DNA of 64,000 nucleotides, taken from a bacterium (GTDB lineage: Bacteria > CLD3 > SB21). The position numbers were made by a program, and so were the translations under genes. Position 1 is the stretch's first letter; every line of letters starts with the position of its first letter. The stretch covers positions 186,001-250,000 of the forward strand of contig JABWCP010000004.1 of NCBI GenBank assembly GCA_013360215.1, read 5' to 3'. The notes under the pieces are model-generated. The model searched no databases. It had not been told where the DNA came from and saw only the letters and a list, made by a program, of their open reading frames with translations. Of the stretch, positions 2 through 40,985 are shown one piece after another.

Positions 2-3000
2 ATACCGCCGGGATTTACAGGCGCAAGTGTAAATGCAATCGCGGTTGTTGGAACGGATGTTTACGTCGGTGGAGATATTAGCTCGATGAGCGGTAACCCA
101 ACAGCTTCGCACATTGCTAAATGGAACGGCACATCTTGGGAAGCGCTAGGATCGGGCGTTGATGGCGTGGTGCGAGCTATTACTGTTTCCGGCTCAGATG
201 TTTACGTTGGCGGACAGTTTACTACGGCCGGAGGAATATCTTCGCCCGGTATTGCACGTTGGGACGGAAGTGCATGGCATTCGGTGGGCGGGGGTCTCGC
301 CGTAGTCGGAACGCCTAATGTACGCGCTATAGCTGTATCCGGATCTAATATTTATGCCGGCGGTGCATTTACAGATGCAAATGGGAATACCAGCGCTGAC
401 TACATTGCTATGTGGGATGGGGCTTCATGGAACGCATTAGGAACTGGACTTAATGGAACTGTAAACACCATTGCGATAGGAAATTCTAATATTTATGTCG
501 GAGGATTTTTTACCGATGCCGGCTCGATTACAACAGCAGACAGAATTGCGTACTGGAATGGCTCAAGTTGGAATGCTTTATCAACAGGCTCAACTACTAC
601 TGTAAATGCAATTGCTTTTGAATCTGATACTAGTATTTATGTTGGTATTGCAGGTGCGCCGGGTTTAAGAAGGTGGAATGGTACGGCATTTAGTAGTGTT
701 GGTGGGACAAACACGTTAAACAACGCAGTTCAGAGTATTCTTCTTCAAGGATCAAATGTAATCGTTGGTGGTTCATTTACACAAAACGTTAATAAATCAC
801 CGCTCCGTTTAGGCCGAATTGCTCAATGGACAGGAAGTGCATGGCAAGCGCTAGATAGTTTATCAGGTACAGTTAACGCTTTAGGCTATGCGTCAAGTAC
901 ACTTTATATCGGTGGTGCTTTTTCTGATGCTGGAACGATGGTTAATGCAGATCGTCTTGCTCAATGGAACGGTACACGTTTGTTACCTGTTGGTACAGGG
1001 TTAGCAAATACAGTTCGTGCTATAGTTGCTTCCGGTACGACAGTATCTGTCGGCGGTGATTTTGAAGATGCCGACACATTGACCAAAGCAGACTATGCTG
1101 CGCGATGGAATGGGTTCACCTGGTCGGCCATGCAAAGCGGTTTCAAAGGCTCTGTGTATTCGATGTCGCAATCGGGAACTACGATATTTGCGGGGGGTTC
1201 TTTCACGCAGATAGGTACCGGAACAAAAGTAAATAACGTGGCACGATGGACCGGGAGTACGTGGGGTACGATGAATGTTTCAGGTGGTACTGCTAATACA
1301 GTTGGAACGAATGGCTCGGTCAATGCCGTCGCGGCTGTAACAACGACGCGTGCGTATGTGGGAGGTAGTTTTACGAAACTTGGGGACTCTACGGTTGTTA
1401 ATGGTATTGCGCGTTGGACCAATGGTGTGGGTTGGGAAGCTTTGGGATCGGGCGTTTCCGGTGGCAATGTTTATGCTTTGGCTCTTTCAGGTACGAAACT
1501 TTACGTCGGTGGTGATTTTACATCGGCCGGCGGTGTCGCCAATACATCTCATATAGCTGTTTGGGATACGGCAACCGCTACATGGTCAGCTTTAGGTTCG
1601 GGCATTTCTAATAACACAGTGTATTCTATTGTCGTCAACGGTTCAGATGTGTATGTCGGCGGTAATTTTACAGATGCCGGCGGCGTTGCGGCAGCGGACC
1701 ATATTGCTAAATGGGATGGCGTTTCATGGTCCAGTGTAGGTACAGGCACAGAAATAAATAATACCATTCGTACGATGGCTTTTTTGGGAACAGATCTGTA
1801 TGTCGGCGGTGATTTTACAGATGCGGCCGGATATTCAGGTGGTGATTATATTGCTAAGTGGAGCGGATCAGCCTGGTCTGCACTTGGAGATGGTGCCAAT
1901 AATTCGGTTTACGCGATTATTGCTGCCGGCTCCGATTTATATGCCGGAGGAAATTTTACATCAATTGACGGGTCTTCAGCATCGCGGTTTGCACGATACC
2001 GCGTGCCGGATGTGACAGCACCCGCAAGACCGACCGCTGTCGTGAATGCGACCGTCAGTAGTCAATCAATGACAATTAAATGGAAAAAAAATACGGAAGT
2101 AGATTTCGCTAAGTACAGAGTATATACGGGTACCGACTCCAATGCGGTTTCCCAAACCGATTCATCTACTTCTATAAGCGATACATCCCGTGTTATTACA
2201 GGTTTAACCAATGGAATAAAATATTATGCGCGTATCAGTGCGGTTGATATTTGGGGTAATCAAAGTAACGCATCGGTTGCAATTTCCGGTACACCCAACG
2301 ATACAGTGCCGCCGTCAACGCCTTCGCTTATTTCAGCAACCGGGGATAATTTGACGGTTAACCTTACCTGGTCAAAAAATAACGATTCAGATTTCAAACG
2401 TTACCGCATTTATCGGGGTACTTCGCCCGGAGCCACAACCCAGGTGGATTCTGTATCCATCGTCGGTGATACTACGAAAAGCGTTTCAGCGCCGATACCC
2501 GGAGTTACATTTTATTTCAGAGTGCGTACTTTAGATTCAGCAAATAACCTGAGTGCATATTCCGGTGAATTATCAGCGTCTTCATTAGATCAAACGCCAC
2601 CTTCCGCGATTACGGGGCTATCTACGACTGCGGCTGATACGACGGTTATTTTACGTTGGCACCAAAGTACAGCGACGGATTTTGGTAAATACTATATCTA
2701 TATGGATACGGTGGCGCTGCCTGCAACGGCGGTGGATTCGGCGCTGACAAAAGCAGATACCGCACGAACGTTTACGCATTTGACCAATGGTAAAACGTAT
2801 TATTTTCGCGTGACAGCGGCCGATACATTTGCCAACGTATCGGCATTTTCATCGGTTGCATCAGCCACTCCTTTTGATCAGACATCGCCTTCAGCACCGC
2901 AAAATCTTGCCGCGGTGGCAAGTAATGCTTCGGTTGTATTGCATTGGGATGCCAATACGGAAAATGATCTTTTGAGGTATCGTGTATTTGTGGGTACTTC

Positions 3001-4642
3001 CTCTGGTAATCAAGTACAAACCGATTCCACAGTGCATGATAGTATTGTAGTCAATGGCCTGAATAGCAATACGGAGTACTTCTTCCGGATCGCCGCGATA
3101 GATACAGGCAAAAATCAAAGCAATTATTCCAATGAAGTATCAGCTACGCCATTTGCAGCCAATGCCGCGCCGACGAATCCTGTTTTATTGGCAGCTACAG
3201 CTCAAAATCAATCGGTAGTTTTGACGTGGCAAAAAAACCCGGATGCCGACATATTAAAATATTACGTTGCTGCAGGATTGTCTTCTAATCCGACGGCATT
3301 GGTGGATTCAACCAATGGTGATACGACAGTGACATTGTCCGGATTGACCAATGAACAAGCGTATTATTTCAGAATCATAGCTGTTGATTCAGCATTGCAG
3401 GTCAGCGGATATTCCAATGAATTATCCCAATCTCCTTATGATAATGTTGCCCCTGCTACACCGGTAAATTTTATCGCTTCGGCAGGTGATCAATCGGCGC
3501 AACTCACATGGAATAACGATAACACGGAACCTATTAAAATTTATCGTGTTTTTGTTAATGGTTCTCAAGCCGATTCGCTTACGGACACCACGTATACAGT
3601 GACGGGTTTGACAAATTATACGACGTATCAAGTTAGCATCGTCGCTGTAGATAGTAATGATAATGTTTCATCAAATACTTCAGACATCGGCGTAACCCCG
3701 ATTGACTTGACCGCACCTTCCATTCCCAACAATCTTACTGCTGAGGCTAGCGACGCCTCGGTGCATCTAGTATGGTCCGCTAATACGGAAGGGGATCTCG
3801 CTTGGTATCGAATTTATATCAATGACGTACAAAGCGATTCGACGACCGATACGTCTTATACAGCAAACGCTTTAACTAATTACACATCATATTCCTTCAA
3901 AATTGCAGCCGTTGATACCAGCCATAACGCAAGCGCATTGACTTCACAAGTATCAGTTATGCCTTATGATCAGACGGCACCTGCGATTCCTCAGGACTTG
4001 GCTGCAACGGCTGGCGATGGTCAGGTTACGTTGAACTGGACGGCAAACGGTGAAGGTGATTTAGCACGTTATCGTGTATATATGGATGGTACACAGATTG
4101 ATTCGACTACGAATAATAGCTACACAAAGACCGGCTTAACGAACTACACGACGTATAACTTCAAGTTATCAGCCGTTGATACCAGCCGCAATGCAAGCGC
4201 ACCGACTTCACAAGTATCGGTTATGCCTTATGATCAGACGGCTCCTTCAGAAGTAACCGGTCTTAGTGTAACCCGTGGAGACGGTGCATTGACACTAAAC
4301 TGGACAGCAAATGGAGAATCCGATTTTAAAGCCTATCGTTTATTCATGGGAACAAGTCCCAATCCTACGACGCAAGTAGATTCGGTGACAACGATCGCAA
4401 CGACGAGTAAAGAGTTCGGTGGGTTGGTCAATGGTACGACATATTATTACCGCATGGTGGCCGTAGATACATCAGGCAATGCATCGGATTATTCGGATGA
4501 AGTATCTTCATCACCCTATGACCAGACGGCACCTGCGGTTCCTCAGGACTTGGCTGCAACAGCCGGAGATGGTCAAGTTACGTTGAGGATGGCGCGCAGA
4601 TTGATTCGACTACGAACAATAGCTATACAAAAAACGGTTTGA
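2..4642 (+). CDS. Giant secreted surface protein, N-terminal part (5'-truncated by the window): Trp/Gly-rich beta-propeller repeats followed by tandem fibronectin type III domains; frameshifted near 4586
   Basis: The frame is open from position 2 (IPPGFTGASVNAIAVVGTDVYVGG...). About a dozen ~55-aa repeats (W-x-ALG-x-G...VYVGG-x-FT-x-AGG...IA-x-W-x-G) are followed by about 10 FN3 repeats (L-x-W...Y-x-I/V-Y...GLTNG-x-x-YY-x-R-x-x-AVD...N-x-S). The last ~18 codons are out-of-frame sequence after the deletion. Confidence 0.85.
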   Translation: MPPGFTGASVNAIAVVGTDVYVGGDISSMSGNPTASHIAKWNGTSWEALGSGVDGVVRAITVSGSDVYVGGQFTTAGGISSPGIARWDGSAWHSVGGGLAVVGTPNVRAIAVSGSNIYAGGAFTDANGNTSADYIAMWDGASWNALGTGLNGTVNTIAIGNSNIYVGGFFTDAGSITTADRIAYWNGSSWNALSTGSTTTVNAIAFESDTSIYVGIAGAPGLRRWNGTAFSSVGGTNTLNNAVQSILLQGSNVIVGGSFTQNVNKSPLRLGRIAQWTGSAWQALDSLSGTVNALGYASSTLYIGGAFSDAGTMVNADRLAQWNGTRLLPVGTGLANTVRAIVASGTTVSVGGDFEDADTLTKADYAARWNGFTWSAMQSGFKGSVYSMSQSGTTIFAGGSFTQIGTGTKVNNVARWTGSTWGTMNVSGGTANTVGTNGSVNAVAAVTTTRAYVGGSFTKLGDSTVVNGIARWTNGVGWEALGSGVSGGNVYALALSGTKLYVGGDFTSAGGVANTSHIAVWDTATATWSALGSGISNNTVYSIVVNGSDVYVGGNFTDAGGVAAADHIAKWDGVSWSSVGTGTEINNTIRTMAFLGTDLYVGGDFTDAAGYSGGDYIAKWSGSAWSALGDGANNSVYAIIAAGSDLYAGGNFTSIDGSSASRFARYRVPDVTAPARPTAVVNATVSSQSMTIKWKKNTEVDFAKYRVYTGTDSNAVSQTDSSTSISDTSRVITGLTNGIKYYARISAVDIWGNQSNASVAISGTPNDTVPPSTPSLISATGDNLTVNLTWSKNNDSDFKRYRIYRGTSPGATTQVDSVSIVGDTTKSVSAPIPGVTFYFRVRTLDSANNLSAYSGELSASSLDQTPPSAITGLSTTAADTTVILRWHQSTATDFGKYYIYMDTVALPATAVDSALTKADTARTFTHLTNGKTYYFRVTAADTFANVSAFSSVASATPFDQTSPSAPQNLAAVASNASVVLHWDANTENDLLRYRVFVGTSSGNQVQTDSTVHDSIVVNGLNSNTEYFFRIAAIDTGKNQSNYSNEVSATPFAANAAPTNPVLLAATAQNQSVVLTWQKNPDADILKYYVAAGLSSNPTALVDSTNGDTTVTLSGLTNEQAYYFRIIAVDSALQVSGYSNELSQSPYDNVAPATPVNFIASAGDQSAQLTWNNDNTEPIKIYRVFVNGSQADSLTDTTYTVTGLTNYTTYQVSIVAVDSNDNVSSNTSDIGVTPIDLTAPSIPNNLTAEASDASVHLVWSANTEGDLAWYRIYINDVQSDSTTDTSYTANALTNYTSYSFKIAAVDTSHNASALTSQVSVMPYDQTAPAIPQDLAATAGDGQVTLNWTANGEGDLARYRVYMDGTQIDSTTNNSYTKTGLTNYTTYNFKLSAVDTSRNASAPTSQVSVMPYDQTAPSEVTGLSVTRGDGALTLNWTANGESDFKAYRLFMGTSPNPTTQVDSVTTIATTSKEFGGLVNGTTYYYRMVAVDTSGNASDYSDEVSSSPYDQTAPAVPQDLAATAGDGQVTLRMARRLIRLRTIAIQKTV

Positions 4643-17274: not shown

Positions 17275-17667
17275 ATGCTCTTCATCCTCCAGGACGGGCC
17301 CGTCTATCTCAATTATCTTCCGGTTCTTGTACTTATGGCGTTGGCTATTATTATCCCGATTGCCATATTGATACTATCCCGGCTTCTCGGTCCCTACAAG
17401 CCTAATGAACGAAAACTTTCGGTTTATGAATCCGGTATGCCGCCTGTCGGGGATGCCCACCCTAAGTTTTCAGTGAAGTTTTATCTTATCGCCATGCTTT
17501 TTATCCTTTTTGATATAGAAATTGTTTTTATGTATCCGTGGGCCGTGATTTACAACAAGTGGGTGTCGGTAAGTACTTTTATTCTCATCGAAGGATTGGT
17601 TTTTATCGGTATTCTGCTTGTAGGTTATGCGTATGCGTGGAAAAAAGGCGCACTGGAGTGGGAATAA
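17275..17667 (+). CDS. nuoA: NADH-quinone oxidoreductase subunit A
   Basis: YESGM.P.G, KFYLIAMLFILFDIE, WKKGALEWE. Confidence 0.96.
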   Translation: MLFILQDGPVYLNYLPVLVLMALAIIIPIAILILSRLLGPYKPNERKLSVYESGMPPVGDAHPKFSVKFYLIAMLFILFDIEIVFMYPWAVIYNKWVSVSTFILIEGLVFIGILLVGYAYAWKKGALEWE

Positions 17668-17708
17668 AACTCCTGAATTAGATAACATCAATCGCACTGA
17701 GAAATATT

Positions 17709-18230
17709 ATGCCTAACAACGAAAAAAATATTTTGGAAAACAACCCGACGCTGGATGCGGTTAAATCCAAGTTCGGCGAGTCATTACTCAAGTCGGAAGT
17801 GTTTCGTAATGAACTCACTCTGTACATCAAACGCGAATCCGTAGCTGAAATCATGGCATTTCTTAAAAACGATTCCGCTCTGGCGTATGATATGCTTAAT
17901 GATGTGACCGTCGTGGACGGATTGATCATGGAAAAAAATCCACGCTTTCAGGTTGTTTATCATTTACGTTCGACCCAATACAATCGCCGCCTTCGCGTCA
18001 AAGCGCCGGTGCCGGAAAACGATTGCAAAATCGCCACGGTATCCCATCTTTGGAAATTAGCCGATTGGGCCGAACGTGAAGCATATGAAATGTACGGCGT
18101 CACTTTCGAAGGACATTCCGATCTGCGTCGTCTTTTGACACCTGCTTCGTTTACAAATTTTCCTTTGCGCAAAGACTATCCCTTACGCGGCAAAGGCGAG
18201 CGCGATGTGATCCTGCCCGAAGGCAGCTAG
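17709..18230 (+). CDS. nuoC: NADH-quinone oxidoreductase subunit C
   Basis: RFQVVYHL, ADWAEREAYEMYGV.FEGH.DLRRLL, PLRKDYPL. Confidence 0.96.
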   Translation: MPNNEKNILENNPTLDAVKSKFGESLLKSEVFRNELTLYIKRESVAEIMAFLKNDSALAYDMLNDVTVVDGLIMEKNPRFQVVYHLRSTQYNRRLRVKAPVPENDCKIATVSHLWKLADWAEREAYEMYGVTFEGHSDLRRLLTPASFTNFPLRKDYPLRGKGERDVILPEGS

Positions 18231-18281
18231 TTTTTTGAATTTATTTTGAAATTTTTCCATAGAGGCGTTGGAAAGGTAAGT

Positions 18282-19589
18282 ATGGAAATAGATCGTTCAG
18301 AAGTTGTTGAGGATTTTAAAGATCAATCCTCAGAAGAAACTCTAAAAAAAGCTAAAGAAGCGTATAAAAAGCACGTTAAGATCGGTGATGATGACGAATC
18401 ATTATCACTTCCCGGCGCACAGCTTCTTACGCTCAATTTCGGTCCGCAGCATCCGGCTACACACGGCACACTGCGTATGGTCATGCAATTGGACGGCGAA
18501 ACCATCGTCAATCTGGATCCGAGCCCCGGTTATTTGCACACCGGTTTTGAAAAACTGGCAGAGCATCATACGTTCAATCAGTTCATTGCGGTCACGGATC
18601 GTATGAACTACCTCTCGCCGATGTCCAATAATATCGGTTTTGCGCAAGCTGCCGAAAAACTTCTCGGTATCACCTTGACGGAGCGGGCGCAATACATTCG
18701 CATGATACAGGGCGAACTTTCCCGCATCGCCGATCACTTGGTCAATATCGGTACGCACGCACTTGATCTAGGTGCGTTTACCGTATTTCTTTATACGTTT
18801 CGCCAACGTGAATTTATCTACGATCTGTTTGAAGAGTCCACGGGTTCACGACTTACCACCAGTTATACGCGTATCGGCGGTGTCGTGCGTGATTTTCCCG
18901 AAGACCATCCGCGTCATATCGCACAGTGGTGTAAACAGTTTAAAGCAACGTGTACGGATCAAGTGGAAGGATTGCTCAATCACAATAAGATTTTTCTGGA
19001 TCGTACGCAAAATGTCGGGAAAATTTCCGCTGAAGACGCGATTAATTGCGGTATGACAGGGCCTTGTTTACGTGCCAGCGGCGTTGCGACAGATATCCGA
19101 AAAGATGAGCCGTATCTCAAATACGATGAAGTGGATTTTGATGTGCCGATCGGAACGGAAGGTGATGTGTACGAACGCTACCTCGTGCGCATGGAAGAAA
19201 TGAAGCAGTCTATTCGTATCATCGAACAATGTTTGGAACGCATGAAACCCGGCCCGGTAAAAGTAGCGGATCATACCATCGCATTACCTGATAAAAATAA
19301 AGTATACGGTTCCATCGAAGGACTGATTCATCACTTCAAATTGATCATGGATCAACATGGCATTGCGATGCCTAAGGGCGAAATATACGATGCGACCGAA
19401 GCGCCCAATGGCGAATTGGGTTGGTACATCGTAAGTAACGGCGAAGGAACGCCGTACAAAGTGCACGTGCGTGCACCTTCTTTTATTCACTTTGGTATGA
19501 TGTCCCACATGGCCAAAGGCGGATTGATCGGTGATGCCGTGGCTATTTTGGGCAGTATGAATGTTATCGCCGGCGAATGTGATCGGTAA
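18282..19589 (+). CDS. nuoD: NADH-quinone oxidoreductase subunit D
   Basis: NFGPQHPATHGTLR, GYLHTGFEK, DRMNY, EAPNGELG, GECDR. ATG at 18282 follows aaaggtaag. Confidence 0.97.
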   Translation: MEIDRSEVVEDFKDQSSEETLKKAKEAYKKHVKIGDDDESLSLPGAQLLTLNFGPQHPATHGTLRMVMQLDGETIVNLDPSPGYLHTGFEKLAEHHTFNQFIAVTDRMNYLSPMSNNIGFAQAAEKLLGITLTERAQYIRMIQGELSRIADHLVNIGTHALDLGAFTVFLYTFRQREFIYDLFEESTGSRLTTSYTRIGGVVRDFPEDHPRHIAQWCKQFKATCTDQVEGLLNHNKIFLDRTQNVGKISAEDAINCGMTGPCLRASGVATDIRKDEPYLKYDEVDFDVPIGTEGDVYERYLVRMEEMKQSIRIIEQCLERMKPGPVKVADHTIALPDKNKVYGSIEGLIHHFKLIMDQHGIAMPKGEIYDATEAPNGELGWYIVSNGEGTPYKVHVRAPSFIHFGMMSHMAKGGLIGDAVAILGSMNVIAGECDR

Positions 19590-21558: not shown

Positions 21559-22077
21559 ATGGCAAAAGCGAAGAAAAAGGTTGTCAAAAAAGCCGCTAAA
21601 AAAGTAGCCCGTAAAAAGGTGAAAGCCTTAAAAAAAACGGTGAAAAAACCGACGGAAAAAATCCCGGCCAAGGGATTGAGTCCGTATCTTTGTTTTAACG
21701 GCAACTGCCGTGAAGCAATGGAATTTTATCGTGACAGTATCGGCGGCAAAATACTTTCGCTTCAAACTTTTGGGGACGCTCCGATGGACAGTACACCGGA
21801 GCAAAAAAATCTCGTGATGCATTCGGAGTTTAAGGCCGACGCCGTGTATTTTATGGCCTCGGATGCGATGCCGGGACAACCCGTAACAAACGGTTCCAAT
21901 GTGACACTTAGCATCAATTTTACAAAACTGGCCGAACAAGAAGCGGTGTTTAGCAAGTTATCTGCGGGTGGTACGATCATCATGCCGCTTCAGGAAACAT
22001 TTTGGGGTGCTAAGTTTGGTATGTTTACCGATAAATTCGGTATTCAGTGGATGCTCAACTGCCAATTGAAAAAATGA
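21559..22077 (+). CDS. VOC/PhnB (3-demethylubiquinone-9 methyltransferase-like) protein with an N-terminal Lys/Ala-rich histone-H1-like tail
   Basis: PYL.FNGNC.EAM.FY, VMH, MASD and MPLQETFWGAKFGMFTDKFGIQWM; the first ~38 aa are K/A/V-rich. Confidence 0.9.
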   Translation: MAKAKKKVVKKAAKKVARKKVKALKKTVKKPTEKIPAKGLSPYLCFNGNCREAMEFYRDSIGGKILSLQTFGDAPMDSTPEQKNLVMHSEFKADAVYFMASDAMPGQPVTNGSNVTLSINFTKLAEQEAVFSKLSAGGTIIMPLQETFWGAKFGMFTDKFGIQWMLNCQLKK

Positions 22078-28481: not shown

Positions 28482-30068
28482 ATGGAAAATTATAATTCGC
28501 TTGCGCTTTCGCTTCTGATTTTTATGCCGTTGGTCGGTGTCGTCGTTATTTCTTTCATAGACCGACGCAACGAGAACTTGATCAAAGCAACAACGTTTGC
28601 GTTTTCTGCGCTCGTGTTTGTTTTGTCCATACCGATCTACATGAATTACGACTTCAGCAATCCGGAAATGCAGTTTACGTATAAAGCAAAATGGATTGTT
28701 GATTGGGGTGCCTACTATACTTTGGGCGTGGACGGTCTTTCGATGCTTTTGATCATGCTGACGACTTTTATGATGCCTTTGGCTGTGGTTGCTTCATGGA
28801 AAAGCATTCACTTTCACGTTAAAGGTTTCATGATTTCGTTGCTCTTGCTGGATGCCGGGATGGTGGGTGTTTTTTGTGCGCGGGATATGCTTTTGTTTTA
28901 CGTGTTCTGGGAAGCCATGCTGGTGCCGATGTATCTCATCATCGGTATTTGGGGGCACGATCATCGTATCAAAGCCGCTGTGACGTTCTTCATATATACT
29001 ATGGCCGGCAGCTTGTTCATGCTCGTCGCGATTATTTATATGTATTTCCAAACCGGTGCGGTAGTGGATAATGGAACCGTGCTCTCCATGCACTCGTTTG
29101 CCGTTGATGATTTTGCAAAACTACAGTTACCATACGAGACTCAATATTGGCTATTCCTTGCGTTTGCACTCGCCTTCGCAGTTAAAGTTCCGATGTTTCC
29201 TTTTCATACATGGTTGCCCTTGGCCCACGTCGAAGCGCCGACGGCAGGTTCGGTGGATCTGGCTGCGATCTTGTTAAAGATGGGGCCCTACGGTTTTATG
29301 CGTTTCTGCATTCCATTTTTTCCTGAAGTCGCCAACGATTTTACGCCCGTGATTATGGTGGTAGCGATCATCGGTATTATTTATGGCGCACTTGTCGCTA
29401 TGGTACAAACCGACGCCAAAAAATTGGTTGCGTATTCATCCGTAAGCCACCTTGGTTTTGTTATGCTCGGTATTTTTGCGTTTACGATTCAAGGTTGGCA
29501 GGGTGCAATGATGATTATGATCGGGCACGGTATATCAACCAGCGCGCTCTTTCTCATGATCGGTATGTTATACGATCGCCGTCACACACGCGAAATTGCG
29601 AAATTTGGCGGTTTGTGGAAAGTCATGCCGGCCTTTTCAGTTATTTTTATGATTGTTTGTTTTTCATCGTTGGGTCTTCCCGGAACTAACGGGTTTATCG
29701 GTGAATTCCTTGTTTTGATCGGAACATTTATTTCGTCCATAGGTCATGCCCGTCTCTATGCGACGCTGGCTATGTTGGGCGTGATTTTGGGTGCTGTTTA
29801 TCTTCTTTGGATGTACCAACGCGTCTGCTTTGGTGAGATCGTTCATGAGGAAAATAAAAAACTTCCCGATCTTTCAGTACGTGAATATGCACTTGTCACA
29901 CCGTTTCTTATTCTGATTTTCCTGTTGGGATTCTATCCAAAAATTCTGACAGAAAAAACGGAAGCAACCATGCACAAGTATCTGAATAATCAGAAAACGG
30001 CTGTCGAGCAGGCCAAAACCAAAAAGAATAGCGGCCCGATGATGACCAATCAGCCGATACCGTACTAA
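28482..30068 (+). CDS. nuoM: NADH-quinone oxidoreductase subunit M
   Basis: FWEAML.PMY, KVPMFPFHTWLP.AHVEAPT, AYSSVSHLG, GLPGTNGFIGEF. Confidence 0.98.
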   Translation: MENYNSLALSLLIFMPLVGVVVISFIDRRNENLIKATTFAFSALVFVLSIPIYMNYDFSNPEMQFTYKAKWIVDWGAYYTLGVDGLSMLLIMLTTFMMPLAVVASWKSIHFHVKGFMISLLLLDAGMVGVFCARDMLLFYVFWEAMLVPMYLIIGIWGHDHRIKAAVTFFIYTMAGSLFMLVAIIYMYFQTGAVVDNGTVLSMHSFAVDDFAKLQLPYETQYWLFLAFALAFAVKVPMFPFHTWLPLAHVEAPTAGSVDLAAILLKMGPYGFMRFCIPFFPEVANDFTPVIMVVAIIGIIYGALVAMVQTDAKKLVAYSSVSHLGFVMLGIFAFTIQGWQGAMMIMIGHGISTSALFLMIGMLYDRRHTREIAKFGGLWKVMPAFSVIFMIVCFSSLGLPGTNGFIGEFLVLIGTFISSIGHARLYATLAMLGVILGAVYLLWMYQRVCFGEIVHEENKKLPDLSVREYALVTPFLILIFLLGFYPKILTEKTEATMHKYLNNQKTAVEQAKTKKNSGPMMTNQPIPY

Positions 30069-30145
30069 TATCTTTTGCATGCGGCTTTGTGCGAATGATA
30101 AACAACTGACGATAGCGCATGAAGCAGTGATTTCGACCAATTATG

Positions 30146-30176
30146 AAAAGGTTCGCGCATGCTGCGAACCTTTTTT
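30146..30176 (+). terminator. Intrinsic terminator inside the nuo cluster, after nuoM
   Basis: aaaaggttcgc-gcatgct-gcgaacc followed by tttttt. Confidence 0.8.
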
Positions 30177-30218: not shown

Positions 30219-33200
30219 ATGCAATCTTCACTAACCACATTGTGCCCCAATTGCGGTAAAGAATTGACGGCGGATACGCAACCGGCCGCATGCCCGCATT
30301 GTCGTTACTTGTTTAGTGTGGATTTGAAAAGTTTTATCGTACCGGAAGATCACGGGCTGTGTGTCAAAGAAATTCGCACCGGCATCGAAAAAGAACGTTT
30401 TGAAGAAGTCGGGCTTCTTATTCATCATCTTATACACCGCAATTTTTTGGATGATAAAGCACTGCGTATGATCGGTATGGAACTGCATGCGACGCATAAG
30501 GATGCACTAGCGCTTGCGTGCTGCGAACGTGCCGTACAAATCAATCCGCAAGATGCGTGGAATCATCACGCCCTGTCGGAAACATGTCAGCAGATCGGTA
30601 TGCTTGAGGCGGCATTCAAACATGCCCAAGAAGCTGTTCGGTTGGATCCTATGGAGTCACGCCATCATGCGCGGATCGCCGAAGTATATGACAAACAAAA
30701 TCAATCTACGCTCAGCGCTCGCTCTTATCTTATGGCGATGGCTCTCAGCGGTGCGTATATCAAAAACTTTGATCAATTGATTGATGATGCGATAGATCTT
30801 GTTATGGTGGAGTCAACCTACGAAGAGCTTCGCAAACAACATCCGGAAGTACGGATAATCCACTTCGCGATGGGCAATCTGTATCTCGGAAAGATGAATT
30901 ACGAAAAAGCGGAAACCGCGTTTCAGCAAGTCGTTTCATCGCAGCCTTCCAATGTTTCCGCATTAAACCGTCTTGCGGAGGTTTATCAAAAGCAAAATAA
31001 ACCCGAACAAGCGCTTGAAATGTACAAACGCAGCCTCGCATCGGAAGAATCCAATTTAGACACGTTGCGTAATCTCGGAAAACTGTATAAAGAAAAAAGC
31101 AATTGGGCAGAAGCGCTGAAATATTTTGAACGCATTCTTAAGATTAATAATAAAGACAGTAATGCGGCGTATGAAACCAAAGAAATGTATCGCAAGCTCA
31201 ATAACCCTCAAAAAGCTATTGAGGTAATGAAAGAGTACCAGCGCACGGATGTGTCGTACTATAATTGGGCGATGCATCATATTTTTGAAATTCTCTACTA
31301 TGATCTGAAAGACGATAAACAACTCATCGAACTCGTCGAAAAAACGTATCCTAATAAAATCACCGATTCGTTTGTTTACGATTATTATGGATATAGTTTG
31401 ATGAATACGGGGCGATTGGATGAAGCCGTAAAAGCGTTTGAACGCTTTGTCGAACTTGAGCCTAAAAATGCACGAGTCATGCGCGAATTGGGACGTGTGT
31501 TTTGTGATTTGCAACGCTACCAGGAAGCCATAGAGGTTCTTAAAAAATCATTTGCCATCGAAAATAAGAATTCGTACGGCTATTATTACCTCGCCTTGGC
31601 TTATCACAAGTTAGGTAAGGATGATCTGGCCCGAAAAACATTGAACGAAGGCAAACAGTTTGATCCAACGTATAAATGGTTTGATGAACTTCTGACAGAG
31701 ATGGATCCCAATTATACGCCGACGGCTATCCCGGAAAATGTAACCGAAACACCGGTTACCACCGGTACGGGCGTTTTGGGTGAAACAGTGGCGCCGGCGC
31801 TTCCGAATTTTTTACGCGATCTGACGCAATTGGCCAAAGAAGGGAAGATCGAAAACATTTTTGGCCGCACGCATGAGTTGATGGAACTGATCGAAGTTTT
31901 GTGCCGTCGGAATAAAGCTAATCCGTTGATCGTAGGCGCACCGGGCGTCGGTAAAACGGTTTTGGTGAATGGTCTTGCTCACTTACTGGCGCAAAAAAAA
32001 GTTCCCGATATTTTGCAAGATTACCGTTTGCTCGAACTGGAAGTTTTTGCTGTTGTGGCGGGTACACGATATGTCGGAACGCTTGAGCAGAAATTTATGC
32101 AACTGGCTCAATATTGCCGGCAGAACAAAGTAATTATTTTTATCGATGAGCTGCACACATTGATGGGTGCCGGTTCCTATAGTTCGCATGAAACAGGTGG
32201 GTTGGATGAAATGTTCAAACCGCTGATGACGCAACCGGAATTCAAATTGATCGGTGCGACGACGGACGAAGAATATCAGAAAAACATAGCTAAAAGCGGA
32301 GCTTTTGATCGTCGTTTTACACGTATTACGGTATTTGAACCTATGCGTGATGAGACGATGAATATACTCGGATCTTTGCGCGGAAAAATCGAACCGTTTT
32401 ATCATGTGCAAGTCAGTGATCGTATGCTCCGTACGACGTACGATATGGCCGAAAAATATATCAAAAACCGTTACTTTCCGGATAAGGCCTGTGACTTACT
32501 TGAGCGCGCTTCGATCAAAGCAAGTCTGTCGCGTTCGGGCGCCGAAGGTGAAATAAAAGAAGTTACCGAAGAGCACATCGTACAAGCGGTTTCTCAAGTA
32601 ACACGCATTCCCGAAAGTAATATTCAAATTGACGCCATGATGGGCATGCTGTCGCTCGAAGATCGTTTGCGCATGCGGGTGATAGGGCAAGAGGAAGCGA
32701 TCCAAAAAGTCGCTGAAGTCGTACGCATGACCAAAAGCGGTCTTGATGTAAATCCGGAACGACCGGACGGTGTTTTTCTTTTTGTAGGCCCGACCGGCGT
32801 AGGAAAAACCGAATTGGCTAAAGCATTGGCCGAAGCGTTAGAAGGCAGCGATAAAAGACTTGTTCGCATTGATATGTCGGAGTATAATGATCAGTATGCC
32901 TTATCCAAACTGATCGGAACGGCACCCGGTTTTGTAGGGTATGAAGACGAAGGGCGGTTAACTAAAGCTGTGCGCGAAGATCCTTCGGCGGTAATACTTT
33001 TGGACGAAATCGAAAAAGCGCACCCAAAAATTTATGAAGCGTTTTTGCAGGTTTTTGATGACGGTCGTATGACGGATGGTAAAGGAAATGTGATTTCGTT
33101 TTCTCATACGACGATGATTATGACATCCAATCTCGGTGCCGAACATATTTATGGAAAAGAGAAACTTGGTTTTTCGGGTGGAACAGAAGATGTTCACAAG

Positions 33201-33569
33201 CAAATTTCGCAAGGTATCACAGAATCCATGCGAAAGCATTTTTCACCTGAATTTTTGAATCGAATTGACGAAATTATAGTGTTTAGGCCATTGGATGATG
33301 AAGCGCTTATACAAATCGCGCAGCAGAAGTTGGATGGAATAGTCAAACGTTTTGCCGACCGTGATATTCGCATCCATATCGAACAAGATGTTGCGGCGCT
33401 GTGCGTGCGAGACATCGACAGCAAACGGGAAGGCGCGCGCGGAATAAATCGTCAATTGGAAGACATGATATCCAGACCGCTGTCGCGTGTCATGATTCAA
33501 AACCCGAATTGTAAAGCTTATAACATCAAACGCAGTGAAAACGAAATACTCGTTTTGCGCGGCGCATAA
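30219..33569 (+). CDS. Zn-ribbon + TPR + two-AAA+ Clp/Hsp100 ATPase (ClpA-like, no middle domain, LGF ClpP-docking loop)
   Basis: CPNC...CPHC; ~400 aa of TPR-like repeats; D1 GAPGVGKT / IIFIDELH / RYVG pore loop / DRRF; D2 GPTGVGKT / RIDMSEY / GFVGY / LLDEIEK / KLGF / PEFLNRID. Confidence 0.9.
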   Translation: MQSSLTTLCPNCGKELTADTQPAACPHCRYLFSVDLKSFIVPEDHGLCVKEIRTGIEKERFEEVGLLIHHLIHRNFLDDKALRMIGMELHATHKDALALACCERAVQINPQDAWNHHALSETCQQIGMLEAAFKHAQEAVRLDPMESRHHARIAEVYDKQNQSTLSARSYLMAMALSGAYIKNFDQLIDDAIDLVMVESTYEELRKQHPEVRIIHFAMGNLYLGKMNYEKAETAFQQVVSSQPSNVSALNRLAEVYQKQNKPEQALEMYKRSLASEESNLDTLRNLGKLYKEKSNWAEALKYFERILKINNKDSNAAYETKEMYRKLNNPQKAIEVMKEYQRTDVSYYNWAMHHIFEILYYDLKDDKQLIELVEKTYPNKITDSFVYDYYGYSLMNTGRLDEAVKAFERFVELEPKNARVMRELGRVFCDLQRYQEAIEVLKKSFAIENKNSYGYYYLALAYHKLGKDDLARKTLNEGKQFDPTYKWFDELLTEMDPNYTPTAIPENVTETPVTTGTGVLGETVAPALPNFLRDLTQLAKEGKIENIFGRTHELMELIEVLCRRNKANPLIVGAPGVGKTVLVNGLAHLLAQKKVPDILQDYRLLELEVFAVVAGTRYVGTLEQKFMQLAQYCRQNKVIIFIDELHTLMGAGSYSSHETGGLDEMFKPLMTQPEFKLIGATTDEEYQKNIAKSGAFDRRFTRITVFEPMRDETMNILGSLRGKIEPFYHVQVSDRMLRTTYDMAEKYIKNRYFPDKACDLLERASIKASLSRSGAEGEIKEVTEEHIVQAVSQVTRIPESNIQIDAMMGMLSLEDRLRMRVIGQEEAIQKVAEVVRMTKSGLDVNPERPDGVFLFVGPTGVGKTELAKALAEALEGSDKRLVRIDMSEYNDQYALSKLIGTAPGFVGYEDEGRLTKAVREDPSAVILLDEIEKAHPKIYEAFLQVFDDGRMTDGKGNVISFSHTTMIMTSNLGAEHIYGKEKLGFSGGTEDVHKQISQGITESMRKHFSPEFLNRIDEIIVFRPLDDEALIQIAQQKLDGIVKRFADRDIRIHIEQDVAALCVRDIDSKREGARGINRQLEDMISRPLSRVMIQNPNCKAYNIKRSENEILVLRGA

Positions 33570-33594: not shown

Positions 33595-35061
33595 GTGGAA
33601 ATAGTCATTCCGGATACGAATATAACAGCGATCATGCCGCAGGTGATCCTGACCATCGGCGCATGCGTAACATTATTGATGGGTGTTTTTACACCCCATC
33701 TGAGAAAATGGGCGGGTTATGTCGCGTTTGCGACATGTGTGATCGCATTTCTTGATGTGATGACGATGTGGGATACTAAAATGGTAGCGTTTAGCGGTAT
33801 GATAACGCTAAACTATTACACGCATGCTTTCAGTATCGTCATACTCGCGAGCGCTGCGCTAGTTTGCCTCGTGACATACGACGACGTGAGTGAACATAAA
33901 GTAGGCGAATTCTTTTCGGTGTTGCTGATGTCAACGACGGGCATGCTGATCATGGTGGCAAGTATGAACCTGATGGTGATTTTCCTCGGGCTTGAGATCA
34001 TGTCCATAGGTTTATATATCCTTATCAGTATTAACCGGTCTAAAATTCGTTCGCTGGAAGCCGGTATGAAGTATTTTTTACTTGGCGCTTTTGCATCCGG
34101 TTTTTTTCTTTATGGTATTGCATTGACCTACGGAGCAACGGGGAGTTTTGACCTTGCACGAATAGCTAACTATCTTTCAATGAATAATTTGCTCGGCGAT
34201 CCTCTGGCGTTGGCGGGCACTTCGCTATTAATTATTGGTTTCGGTTTTAAGGTTGCGTTAGTTCCATTTCACATGTGGTCGCCCGATGTATATCAAGGTT
34301 CGCCCGCTCCGGTAACAGCATTCATCGCGAGTGGTCCCAAAGTAGCCGCATTTGCAGCTTTTGCGCGTGTATTCATTGACACCTTCAATACGTTAGCGAT
34401 CGAATGGTCTGAAGTGCTTTTTTGGATCTGTGTGATCAGCATGATCGGCGGAAACCTGATGGCATTGGTACAACGCGATATCAAACGTATGCTTGCATTT
34501 TCGAGTATTTCACATGCCGGATATATCATCATGGCTATACTCGCCGGACCGAAGTTAATGGATAGTAATCCTAACCTAGCGATGGATTCGATACTCTACT
34601 ACGTCATGGTTTATTCGCTGATGAATATATGTGCGTTTACAATCATTCACGTTTTTGAAACGCGTGAAGGTCGAAACCTTAAGGTAGATGATTTTGCCGG
34701 GTTTGGATTTCGCTATCCCCTGTTAAGCGTTGCGATGTCTATTGCAATGTTATCTATGGCCGGATTCCCTCTTACCGGCGGATTTATAGGAAAGTTAAGA
34801 GTGTTCTCGGCAGCTGTGGATGCAGGTTATGTGGCCCTGACGATCGTCGCTGTTATCACTTCTACGATTTCGGTATATTATTATCTCGGTGTTATGGTCA
34901 AAATGTATTTTACGGATGCGGAAAACCCGCTTGAAGATATTTATCTTTCCAAGTCCACACGCACAGCGCTCGCACTAAGCAGCGCCGGGCTTGTATTGCT
35001 TGGCGTGATACCGACGGTGATCGCTGACGTGGTACGTACTGTGTTTCAAGCTTTTGTTTAA
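33595..35061 (+). CDS. nuoN: NADH-quinone oxidoreductase subunit N
   Basis: GLEIMS, EAGMKYFLLG, FKVALVPFHMWSPDVYQGSP, KRMLAFSSISHAG, AGFPLTGGF.GK. Confidence 0.97.
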   Translation: MEIVIPDTNITAIMPQVILTIGACVTLLMGVFTPHLRKWAGYVAFATCVIAFLDVMTMWDTKMVAFSGMITLNYYTHAFSIVILASAALVCLVTYDDVSEHKVGEFFSVLLMSTTGMLIMVASMNLMVIFLGLEIMSIGLYILISINRSKIRSLEAGMKYFLLGAFASGFFLYGIALTYGATGSFDLARIANYLSMNNLLGDPLALAGTSLLIIGFGFKVALVPFHMWSPDVYQGSPAPVTAFIASGPKVAAFAAFARVFIDTFNTLAIEWSEVLFWICVISMIGGNLMALVQRDIKRMLAFSSISHAGYIIMAILAGPKLMDSNPNLAMDSILYYVMVYSLMNICAFTIIHVFETREGRNLKVDDFAGFGFRYPLLSVAMSIAMLSMAGFPLTGGFIGKLRVFSAAVDAGYVALTIVAVITSTISVYYYLGVMVKMYFTDAENPLEDIYLSKSTRTALALSSAGLVLLGVIPTVIADVVRTVFQAFV

Positions 35062-35084: not shown

Positions 35085-35121
35085 AATAGTTCTCATCCAA
35101 GCGATGAGAACTATTTTTTTT
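35085..35121 (+). terminator. Intrinsic terminator after nuoN
   Basis: aatagttctcatc-caagc-gatgagaactatt plus a T run. Confidence 0.85.
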
Positions 35122-38108: not shown

Positions 38109-40985
38109 CTAAAATTGTCCCGTGAGCGTAATTACAATTTGAGGCTGAGCATGTTTGTTGTCGTCGGTGTTCTTTTTATCAAAGGCATATGCATAGCGAT
38201 AACCGACGCTAAACTCGACGGGTAAGGTAAAAAAATGCATATTGGCATATCCTCCCGCTCCGGCAGACCGATATTTGGTTTTGACGTTGGGTCCGGAATA
38301 ATCTTGCCCGATTCCGTAGTCACCAAAAACATCAGCATAAATCCGTTTGATATAAAACATGGCTAAAAAATCCGTATCGGGATACATAAGCGGAACAGTA
38401 TAAGTCGCCCCCAATTTCTTAATAGCATCGTGGTAAATGTACGAATAACTGCGCGGAAAAATCATCCAGCTTGCGTATCTGTAGTTGGCTCCGGTTTTCT
38501 GTCTTTCAAATTGACCTTGCATCCATCCACTGTGGCGTTTTAGTAAACCCGGGAAAAACAGATCACCTTGGGCAAAAAATTGACTCCCGTTATAATGATC
38601 TTTAAAAGGTGATTTGCTATACGTTATCCAAATGCGCTGACCCCACTGTGGATAGACATAAGCTGCCGGTTGTGTTGCGTTATAATAGAAGCCCGAAAAA
38701 AAGATACTTCGCATAACGCCATTGTTTTGATCAAATGCGAAAGAGATTTTTTGGTCGGAAATTTTTGTATATGAAAAACCGGTTGATGCTGAAAAATAAC
38801 GTTGCCATCCTTGGCTCGAAAAATTGAGTGGTAATCGCAATGCTGCGCTTAAGCTTTTTTCATTCCATCCGTACCACTTCAGTTTTTCAGTTTTTTTACC
38901 GTCTTTGATAGTAGTAACGGTATATGTAGATGAACGCGAACCGAGTCTAGCGGTAATATCCGCAATCGGATAAAAACCACCGTACGACGCGCCCACTTCA
39001 CCGCCGGATGTTTTTTCATTGCGATCATAATTGTAGGATGCCGATAAACGCGTCGTGGACATGATGTTTTGGGAAAATACGGACAAGCCATATTGTCTGG
39101 GATTCAGTGTAGGCGACCATGAATGTATGTTGATCAGATCGGATAGGGAGTTGTAGCTTTTAACGGCGAAGGTACCCGGTGTTATGCTATCAAAACGGAT
39201 GGGTCCAAGTTCTTGTTTGAGCAAGGGTTCATAATAACCGTCATTTTTACGGGACAGGATATCTATGCTTGTCCAGCGATTGGTATCCAAAAGTAAAGAA
39301 CAAGCAATGTAGCCGTCTACATTATATTCATCGAATAATAATTTATTACCGCCGGAAACAAACGGATTGAAAGCGCCTAACGAGCTGTGCGTGATTTGTT
39401 TCCATGTGCGATCGTTTTTATGTATGGCAAAAATATTATCGACACCGTCAAAGTGAGCATTCAAAAGTATCCAGTCGTTCCAAATGACAGGATTAGTATA
39501 GTTCATCGTATGTTGAGGGGGCAGCACATCGGTTGTGGTGCTATTTTCGACATCCATAAGAGTAACGCCTTTCCCATCGTGCAAGGTTTGACGTACATAA
39601 ACTATATGCTTGTTATCGGAAGACCAGGACGGGTTAATAATCATATCGTTATTAGGATTGGAAAGTTTTTTTATAATGCTACCGGTTTGTGTATCAAACA
39701 ATATCATTGAAGACTGATTACTGCGGCTGTGTTCCACAGCGGCAAATTTTTGACCGTCCGCTGACATCGCAACATAGGTGAGTCGTGTGTTAGTTAAAAG
39801 AGTTTGAGTTTTTCGAGTAGTGGCGTCCCAGGCGACAACACGACTGCCATTTTTAAGTCCCCATCGCAGATCCCAATCAGGGTCAACCCAAATAACTTTG
39901 TTTTGTGATGCGCTGAAATTACCAGACCATGTTGATCGCGTGATATGAGAAATTGTTCCATCCGTCGTTTTTATTTTTATACCGGGGGCTTCACCGAGAT
40001 TGTAATCAAAAAAAACTAGAGAGCCGTCCGTCAAAGCTTTTGGATTGTTTGGGAACGGATTCATAAATCCATTGTCGTGGCGAACTTCGATCGTTGTCAG
40101 GTCTGATTTGTAAGAAGGTTCCTGAGTTGACCACAAATCTTTGAGTTCTTGTGACATGTTTTCAAATGTATTCGGCGCACCGTTCCCTGTTTTGGCTTTC
40201 ATAGCCCAGGAAAAAGTATAAAAAAACGGAAAATTGGAATTGCGGCGAAGAATATCAGACCACATATCGGATCCGTGGTGACGCTTGACGTACGAAGTCA
40301 TATAATAGCCCATTTCGTAAGCGCCGCCGAAATAGTTTTTGTAGGAACCCATAAGCATCTGATAATAATTTTGCTGTGGACCGCGTAATAACATAGTTCG
40401 CATCGGCATATTAAACGAAGGAAGGCGTCCGCGACCGCTTTGTGTTAGTGCCGTTTCCGTTCCTGTCGCATCACCTTCCCAATACCATGACGGTACGCTC
40501 AAAAAACTTGCGGCCAAAGTTCCTGTTTCGCCGAATAAACCATACATCAAAGCTATGAGACCCCGATTCATTTTATCAAATTGAACGACATGCCGAAATT
40601 CATGAACCGAAAGAAGATTATACCAATCATTGGTTCCGGTAAAAGCGGTTTGAGGAGGCGTGTTGTACCATTCGCTTCGTCGAGGTGCAAGCGTCACAAA
40701 TCCGTTTGAAATAATATTTTGATTGTGAAGAATAACGGTAATTCTATGCGGCTTCTTCTTTAATGAATGGGAAACCGGTTCATATAAATACTCAAGTGTT
40801 GTGGCTACACGTTGTGCATCTTGGGTTATTTCTTCAGGAAAAACAACGCGGAAGTGTTTCGTTTCAATTTCTTTCCATGCAATGCCGGGCGGATTTTGTT
40901 CGGTTCCCAAAGGTAAAATTTGTGCCGATAGATGCGAGCACAAAAAAAAAGCAACGACATGACAGATGAGATAACGCGTTTTCAT
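38109..40985 (-). CDS. Outer-membrane protein: gluzincin-like HExxH domain + TolB-like beta-propeller + probable beta-barrel
   Basis: Signal peptide; HEFRH followed by W..EG.A; PD40-like repeats (NPSWSSD); aromatic alternating strands; C-terminal Phe (TLTGQF). Confidence 0.7.
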   Translation of the reverse strand: MKTRYLICHVVAFFLCSHLSAQILPLGTEQNPPGIAWKEIETKHFRVVFPEEITQDAQRVATTLEYLYEPVSHSLKKKPHRITVILHNQNIISNGFVTLAPRRSEWYNTPPQTAFTGTNDWYNLLSVHEFRHVVQFDKMNRGLIALMYGLFGETGTLAASFLSVPSWYWEGDATGTETALTQSGRGRLPSFNMPMRTMLLRGPQQNYYQMLMGSYKNYFGGAYEMGYYMTSYVKRHHGSDMWSDILRRNSNFPFFYTFSWAMKAKTGNGAPNTFENMSQELKDLWSTQEPSYKSDLTTIEVRHDNGFMNPFPNNPKALTDGSLVFFDYNLGEAPGIKIKTTDGTISHITRSTWSGNFSASQNKVIWVDPDWDLRWGLKNGSRVVAWDATTRKTQTLLTNTRLTYVAMSADGQKFAAVEHSRSNQSSMILFDTQTGSIIKKLSNPNNDMIINPSWSSDNKHIVYVRQTLHDGKGVTLMDVENSTTTDVLPPQHTMNYTNPVIWNDWILLNAHFDGVDNIFAIHKNDRTWKQITHSSLGAFNPFVSGGNKLLFDEYNVDGYIACSLLLDTNRWTSIDILSRKNDGYYEPLLKQELGPIRFDSITPGTFAVKSYNSLSDLINIHSWSPTLNPRQYGLSVFSQNIMSTTRLSASYNYDRNEKTSGGEVGASYGGFYPIADITARLGSRSSTYTVTTIKDGKKTEKLKWYGWNEKSLSAALRLPLNFSSQGWQRYFSASTGFSYTKISDQKISFAFDQNNGVMRSIFFSGFYYNATQPAAYVYPQWGQRIWITYSKSPFKDHYNGSQFFAQGDLFFPGLLKRHSGWMQGQFERQKTGANYRYASWMIFPRSYSYIYHDAIKKLGATYTVPLMYPDTDFLAMFYIKRIYADVFGDYGIGQDYSGPNVKTKYRSAGAGGYANMHFFTLPVEFSVGYRYAYAFDKKNTDDNKHAQPQIVITLTGQF

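Follow-up and report, generated by a model that had tools for sequence, protein, structure and literature searches.

The window analyzed here is the whole 64-kb stretch (64,000 nucleotides) of contig JABWCP010000004.1, from a genome (G000) belonging to a small, uncultured lineage from sludge. Within its complex I (nuo) operon lies an uninterrupted open reading frame (ORF) of 1116 amino acids (aa) with an ATG start (30219–33569, + strand), encoding a double-AAA+ Clp unfoldase headed by a zinc ribbon and TPRs, hereafter TPR-headed Clp (gene clp). The upstream neighbor, nuoM (28482–30068, +), scored 613 bits against TIGR01972, and the downstream neighbor, nuoN (33595–35061, +), which is preceded by GGAGG, scored 407 bits against TIGR01770, both above cut-off. 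The spacers were 150 nucleotides (nt) between nuoM and clp and 25 nt between clp and nuoN, and these coordinates agree with the initial annotation, which had placed the gene on the same strand between nuoM and nuoN, 25 nt before the latter. The genome contains a single nuo operon. As judged from its sequence, TPR-headed Clp appears to be a lineage-specific class-1 Hsp100/Clp unfoldase.

The N-terminus carried a four-cysteine zinc ribbon at aa 5–32 (30231–30314, +; CPNC at 9–12 and CPHC at 25–28), whose cysteines were invariant in 11/11 orthologues and which was folded into two short beta hairpins in an AlphaFold2 (AF2) model of the head. The first 50 residues matched generic zinc-ribbon Pfam families only, all sub-threshold, among the best 25 of 52 families; for two orthologues the ribbon matched 4 and 7 families below cut-offs, none of them ClpX-type. 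A TPR superhelix followed at aa 45–495 (30351–31703, +). Many TPR families of Pfam exceeded their cut-offs over about aa 90–490 (TPR_2, 123 bits; TPR_1, 117 bits), and the head model (aa 1–520, 11 orthologues; mean predicted local distance difference test score, pLDDT, 90.6; predicted template modeling score, pTM, 0.71) placed 29 helices within aa 45–495, corresponding to about 14 TPR-like hairpins. The TPR-like repeats proposed initially were thus supported by both Pfam and the model, and only their length was revised, from ~400 to ~450 aa. Foldseek top matches of the head were the TPR superhelices of O-GlcNAc transferase (OGT) and SPINDLY (E 5.7e-15 and below, template modeling score ~0.4); on the modeled fold, this likeness is of a generic long-TPR kind and not homology to a specific family. 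The tail of the model was disordered from about aa 500, with pLDDT <50 from aa 506, coinciding with a variable, Pro/Thr/Glu-rich linker (aa 498–527; 31710–31799, +) that is predicted to be disordered.

Two AAA+ modules, delimited by Pfam, alignment and motifs, followed the linker: D1 at aa 528–795 (31800–32603, +) and D2, including the D2-small domain, at aa 816–1116 (32664–33566, +). The Pfam order after the TPRs was AAA (570–700), AAA_lid_9 (711–786), AAA_2 (848–1019) and ClpB_D2-small (1025–1095), all four above cut-offs. A full-length AF2 fold from a 15-row alignment was confident in the head and poor in the AAA+ parts (mean pLDDT 71.5, pTM 0.43), so that the placement of the head on the ring is not readable from this model. 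A genome-wide search with Clp_N (PF02861) matched two other genes only, on contigs C32 and C52, never TPR-headed Clp, for which Clp_N was not among the best 25 of 69 Pfam families either. The usual Clp N-domain is therefore truly absent from this protein, as had been proposed. PADLOC defense models gave no full-length match, only partial ones to single AAA modules (e.g., PDC-M37B and DolB, aa 803–977), and Rfam returned 0 matches across the whole 64-kb window.

Motif positions were verified by script and their conservation was read from 15 aligned orthologues, in which all named AAA+ and loop motifs were invariant or nearly so. D1 contained Walker A GAPGVGKT (573–580; 31935–31958), the pore loop AGTRYVG (614–620; 32058–32078), Walker B IIFIDE (639–644; 32133–32150) and RRF (698–700; 32307–32318), all on the + strand, as are those of D2: Walker A GPTGVGKT (857–864; 32787–32810), the pore loop GTAPGFVGY (900–908; 32916–32942), Walker B ILLDEI (926–931; 32994–33011), a sensor-1 TSN and GARG (1072–1075; 33432–33443). 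Walker A and Walker B of both modules were invariant. Aromatic pore loops were found in both rings, R617-Y618-V619-G620 being invariant and G904-F/Y905-V906-G907 kept. D2 also carried the loop YGKEKLGF (978–985; 33150–33173, +), a candidate ClpP-docking loop: Y978, G979, K980, G984 and F985 were invariant, position 983 was hydrophobic, and the tripeptide was [LMVI]GF in 15/15 orthologues and in the divergent member P0126 (MGF in P0021, IGF in P0126). In alignment, KLGFSGG of TPR-headed Clp fell on YVGFNVQ of Bacillus subtilis ClpC, the ClpP-docking loop of that protein. Pfam, the motif script and the alignments thus bore out the architecture given by the initial annotation (1116 aa, a CxxC…CxxC ribbon, a Pro/Thr linker and two complete AAA+ modules with RYVG, GFVG and KLGF), and point to an intact Hsp100-type unfoldase with a built-in TPR/zinc-ribbon head and an (L/M/I/V)GF loop at the position of the ClpC VGF loop.

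Conservation was uneven along the protein. Mean pairwise identity across the order was 48% for the TPRs of aa 45–200, 56% for those of aa 201–309, 85% for the C-terminal TPR block (aa 310–497; 31146–31709, +), 40% for the linker, 89% for the D1 large domain and 86% for the D2 large domain; the C-terminal TPR block is therefore conserved like the ATPase cores. The head overall was 55–64% identical over order-level divergence. The double-ring Clp ATPase is intact and strong purifying selection acts on it. Within the head, the segment adjoining the motor is under very strong constraint, which may be read as a conserved contact.

None of the NCBIfam equivalog cut-offs was reached by TPR-headed Clp. 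The ClpA model TIGR02639 gave 551 bits against a cut-off of 993.15 and aligned to aa 522–1092 only, the ClpB model TIGR03346 gave 541.7 bits against 1232.1, in two stretches, and the ClpV, ClpK and ClpG models scored lower than both. Among solved structures, the best scores were for ClpC of B. subtilis and Staphylococcus aureus (453 bits) and ClpC1 (447), followed by ClpB (~431), ClpE (392) and ClpA (389). The ClpA model and ClpA structures aligned in one stretch, and ClpB and ClpC in two with their M-domain unmatched; TPR-headed Clp therefore has no middle domain, in line with the earlier observation that the ClpB/ClpC type is missing. Two AAA+ modules with Walker A and B, the Pfam domain order and the aromatic pore loops place the protein in class 1 of the Hsp100/Clp family. 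It agreed with ClpA in the absence of a middle domain and departed from it in score and in the absence of Clp_N; it lacked the Clp_N and any counterpart of the coiled-coil M-domain of ClpC; and it differed from ClpB in a score below cut-off and the presence of a ClpP-type loop. On these alignments, its layout is ClpA-like and its sequence slightly nearer ClpC.

The closest ATPase bodies outside the family in a search of 5.8 billion proteins were 743-aa Clp ATPases labelled Chloroflexota/Anaerolineae (44–45% identity), and ClpC-named proteins were 39–41% identical to the ATPase body in the same search. Phylogenetic analysis of 46 ATPase bodies, a quick IQ-TREE run that included two very long rows, set TPR-headed Clp apart from the housekeeping Clp proteins: eight TPR-headed sequences formed one clade (Shimodaira–Hasegawa approximate likelihood ratio support 100), whose stem measured 1.27 changes per site, outside the cluster of the lineage's own ClpC-like and ClpB proteins and with its sister group unresolved. 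The lineage's ClpC-like protein, which has Clp_N and an FGF loop, was ~40% identical to TPR-headed Clp; this value and the quick tree ruled out a recent duplication of the lineage's own ClpC. The lineage also encodes a true ClpB, which scored 1319 bits in the relative G008 (cut-off 1232), and no canonical ClpA was found in it. In the window's genome, clpP occurs in a tig–clpP–clpX cluster and clpS is an orphan. A second ClpP is encoded on its own elsewhere (G000:C49:104135-104854, – strand), by a 239-aa ORF whose N-terminus has an acidic extension; a second strong ClpP match was present in nearly all of the phylum's 20 genomes and in 0/21 of the distant genomes sampled.

The GTDB phylum of the window's genome comprises only 20 species genomes in three families. 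Orthologues of TPR-headed Clp were found in 17/17 other genomes of the window's order, 12 full-length and 5 split over contig ends. The gene was absent from both genomes of the third (sister) family, each 100% complete, as it was from a sample of 21 more distant genomes. Clusters carrying the head at 90% identity numbered 23, including the window's own. When 1.84 billion representatives at 50% identity were searched with the head, just 2 of the best 150 matches (P0008 and P0126) had it in one piece, the remaining 148 being multi-stretch TPR proteins of 1332–4423 aa. Scanning species genomes gave 15 loci, and scanning JGI metagenome contigs gave 1 further locus.

The location of clp was equally constant. 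In 11/11 relatives' loci it was flanked by nuoM and nuoN, all three on one strand, and in the further 16 loci, many of which are the same genomes under public names, nuoM was upstream in 15/15 readable flanks and nuoN downstream in 12/12. The initial annotation had held that homologues in unrelated contexts, together with relatives whose nuoM and nuoN are contiguous, would suggest a chance insertion. The outcome favored the initial proposal: every readable locus with this head had clp in the nuo context and none had it elsewhere, and contiguous nuoM–nuoN was seen in the two sister-family genomes (4/4 pairs), both of which simply lack the gene. With adjacent nuoM–nuoN and no clp in the sister family, the insertion is taken to have arisen once, at the base of the order. 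A recent horizontal insertion or mobile context was rejected, as there was no G+C break across the gene and the neighbors were ordinary chromosomal housekeeping genes. Gain of the N-module (nuoF) together with clp was likewise rejected, nuoF being present in the sister family.

In the 11 relatives' loci, the gap between clp and nuoN was 12–51 nt, and the gap before clp was –4 to 14 nt after a hydrolase gene or 2–109 nt after nuoM. This hydrolase, a signal-peptide alpha/beta hydrolase of ~320 aa (Abhydrolase_1, 1.6e-34), stood between nuoM and clp in 7/11 loci and in 11/15 readable loci of the further 16 (loci with it include L002–L005, L009, L011, L012 and L021). It was missing from the window's locus, and no close homologue was found in the window's genome (best 29% identity). 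No terminator-like site was found between clp and nuoN, and a strong one, a 13-bp hairpin with T8 detected by terminator scan (35085–35115, +), closes the operon after nuoN, so that transcription of nuoN must pass through clp. In the nuoM–clp spacer, a 13-bp hairpin with an A run before and a T run after it (30145–30175, +) had a folding free energy of –16.6 kcal/mol (z –3.76 against shuffles) and was not listed by the consensus terminator scan. RNA-library contigs from two studies contained pieces of nuoM, clp and nuoN, which is weak evidence of transcription since DNA carry-over is possible. No Shine–Dalgarno-like motif was found before clp in the window; usage of this signal in the operon was patchy and the relatives' start codons were uncertain, and it was not used as evidence.

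Other junctions of the nuo operon were also occupied. In the window, a VOC/glyoxalase-family ORF of 172 aa (21559–22077), YjdN-like and with 3-dmu-9_3-mt and Glyoxalase Pfam matches, lay between nuoF and nuoG. At the same junction, relatives had small signal-peptide or lipoprotein-like ORFs (L066 8777–9526; L067 7985–8845 and 8891–9505) or short spacers with no comparable ORF (L068, L024). A comparable exported-type ORF lay between nuoD and nuoE in L069, and in L027 and L047 an extra signal-peptide ORF of 175 aa separated the hydrolase from clp. At 17275–19589 in the window, the operon had the order nuoA–nuoC–nuoD with no nuoB between nuoA and nuoC: 17709–18230 encodes a 30-kDa NuoC and 18246–19589 NuoD, and the sole PF01058 (NuoB) match of the genome was on another contig (G000:C32:39913-40239). 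In the sister family, the nuoM–nuoN pairs closest to the window's (L070 of G019:C7 and L071 of G018:C130) had no other nuo gene detected in the fetched upstream stretch, and a second cluster showed nuoL–nuoM–nuoN only; complex I genes there seem scattered. Outside the operon, the window contained a 958-aa ORF (38109–40985, –) with no Pfam family at E ≤ 1e-8, and a 1518-aa ORF (86–4642, +) with abundant fibronectin type III domains and a match to a Rax2-like beta-propeller. The latter ORF probably encodes a cell-surface protein, and the ORF after it carries a FlgD-Ig-like domain.

The domain content, motifs and gene order suggest that TPR-headed Clp is probably an unfoldase that couples to ClpP, carries a TPR recognition head of its own and is co-transcribed with nuoN. 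Its AAA+ modules, both active-looking, would assemble into a hexameric channel for translocation, with the aromatic pore loops RYVG and GFVG, and the flexible Pro/Thr linker would tether the ~450-aa TPR superhelix, capped by the four-cysteine zinc ribbon, in the place of Clp_N. This head, whose fold resembles substrate-binding TPR arms such as that of OGT, would act as a built-in client- or adaptor-recognition module, and the K(L/M/I/V)GF loop in D2 would most likely dock the ring onto ClpP, for which the genome has two genes at other loci. Clients caught by the head would be threaded through the pore loops, unfolded, handed to ClpP and degraded; being co-transcribed with nuoN, clp would be expressed whenever complex I is made. 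Hexamer formation, coupling to ClpP and the recognition role of the head are proposed by analogy with the established behavior of ClpA, ClpC and ClpX.

Which clients the head would recognize is a separate question. They may, tentatively, include complex I subunits or assembly intermediates. As a special case of the ClpP-coupled unfoldase, TPR-headed Clp could conceivably be devoted to the assembly or quality control of complex I, its TPR head recognizing Nuo subunits or intermediates and its motor, together with ClpP, removing damaged or unassembled ones; such a factor would be an operon-encoded bacterial counterpart of the turnover of the complex I N-module by mitochondrial ClpXP. This is favored by the position of clp inside the only nuo operon, tight with nuoN in the readable loci, and by its presence throughout the other order genomes. 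That the C-terminal TPR block equals the ATPase cores in conservation would fit a partner that is itself well conserved, and NuoF, for comparison, was 77–91% identical in the four relatives aligned. Precedents exist in mitochondrial ClpXP (PMC7118099) and in RavA–ViaA (PMC3893208). A complex prediction of the TPR block aa 200–500 with NuoE and NuoF scored 0.00, without controls, and is evidence neither way. In its boldest form, which is rather unlikely, the protein would be the first operon-encoded AAA+ protease component dedicated to bacterial complex I, with the head docking on Nuo subunits or intermediates, the motor and ClpP extracting and degrading damaged or orphan ones, and the Cys4 ribbon possibly serving as a redox-sensitive switch.

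Several observations weigh against a dedicated role, and some of them against the ClpP-coupled, co-transcribed unfoldase more generally. The link to complex I is suggested by gene position alone, and this synteny, however many loci are counted, represents one evolutionary event because all copies derive from one ancestral insertion; moreover, once lodged in an essential operon, a gene may not relocate easily. The synteny counts exclude P0021 and P0126, the two most divergent members, the contig of P0126 ending inside the gene. The variable ORFs inserted in the relatives' nuo operons and the VOC ORF of the window indicate that the operon tolerates unrelated passengers, and the sister family, with nuoF and nuoM–nuoN and without clp, implies that the complex I of this phylum can do without it. 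As to transcription, the hairpin at 30145–30175 looks like a two-way intrinsic terminator or attenuator and could attenuate transcription ahead of clp, and the RNA-library contigs, which give neither levels nor strand, bridge neither of the clp junctions. Coupling to ClpP is suggested by one loop motif, and the second ClpP was ruled out as a dedicated partner, since it also occurs in the two sister-family genomes, which are without clp.

The clients of a ClpP-coupled TPR-headed Clp might equally be proteins unrelated to complex I. Under this possible, though likewise uncertain, explanation it would have a regulatory or general proteostasis role, and its location in the nuo operon would be accidental and inherited, doing no more than supply a promoter. 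Unrelated ORFs at other junctions of the operon, including the VOC-family gene between nuoF and nuoG, are consistent with this, as are the terminator-like hairpin in the nuoM–clp spacer of the window and the frequent company of the signal-peptide hydrolase, which has no evident link to complex I. In a lineage without canonical ClpA, an extra Clp ATPase could moreover widen the general substrate range. On the other hand, clp was never moved or lost over order-level divergence, whereas the hydrolase beside it was lost in 4/11 loci. Finally, a ClpP-independent remodeler or disaggregase, in which the GF loop would be a relic or make some other contact, is improbable: some Clp unfoldases act without ClpP, ClpI sub-classes with and without LGF motifs are described (PMC10149685), and the ClpB and ClpA models score nearly equally here (541.7 vs 551 bits), but G984 and F985 are invariant and residue 983 is hydrophobic in the 15 orthologues and P0126, there is no ClpB-type M-domain for coupling to DnaK, and a bona fide ClpB is already present in the lineage.

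Searches of open-access papers and preprints turned up neither a TPR-headed Clp nor a Clp gene within a nuo operon, which agrees with the initial statement that no characterized system resembles it. Hsp100/Clp unfoldases choose their clients through N-domains and adaptors. The exchange of the N-domain for a TPR arm and a zinc ribbon would represent a motor–adaptor fusion undescribed among the characterized Clp classes. To our knowledge, no protease dedicated to complex I has been reported in bacteria, and a complex I operon with its own Clp motor offers a concrete system for asking whether bacteria renew complex I as mitochondria do. If the link proves only positional, TPR-headed Clp would still serve as a compact model of how TPRs can guide an AAA+ protease in choosing its clients.

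Among known systems, ClpA of Escherichia coli ClpAP shares with TPR-headed Clp the two AAA+ rings, the absence of a middle domain and a ClpP-docking tripeptide loop in D2, but TPR-headed Clp has no Clp_N, and hence no ClpS docking site, and belongs to a separate, long-stemmed clade. ClpC (B. subtilis ClpC/MecB and Mycobacterium tuberculosis ClpC1) provided the best-scoring solved relatives, and its VGF loop aligns with the LGF loop. The Clp_N and M-domain of ClpC are docking sites for MecA and McsB; TPR-headed Clp lacks both domains and is not nested within the lineage's ClpC-like clade. ClpE of Firmicutes also combines two Clp ATPase rings with a zinc-binding module at the N-terminus and has ClpP as its partner, and its N-terminal domain is described as homologous to the zinc-binding N-terminal domain of ClpX (PMC5506225). 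By comparison, the ribbon of TPR-headed Clp resembles generic zinc-ribbon families at sub-threshold level and is followed by the 450-aa TPR arm, and the ClpE structure scored below ClpC.

EccA1-type and archaeal CDC48-like TPR–AAA fusions likewise carry an N-terminal TPR-type domain on an AAA+ ATPase, the N-domain of EccA1 being TPR-like, and Atlas clusters combine T7SS_EccA1_N with AAA and TPR with AAA. These fusions differ in belonging to other AAA clades and in having a single ring, and they lack both a Clp D2 and a ClpP loop. Two further systems resemble TPR-headed Clp in their proposed connection to complex I. Mitochondrial ClpXP is reported to turn over the complex I N-module selectively (PMC7118099). 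The analogy is functional only, as ClpX is a single-ring, general matrix unfoldase that is not encoded with complex I genes. In E. coli, the AAA+ protein RavA, with ViaA, is reported as physically interacting with Nuo subunits and was proposed to aid Nuo maturation (PMC3893208). RavA–ViaA differs in belonging to the MoxR family rather than Hsp100, in having no link to ClpP and in being encoded outside the nuo operon. Lastly, ClpI of Actinomycetota was defined from sequence analysis as a phylogenetically distinct double-ring Clp class with a variable N-domain and LGF-bearing sub-classes, showing that further Clp classes are still emerging from sequence analysis (PMC10149685).

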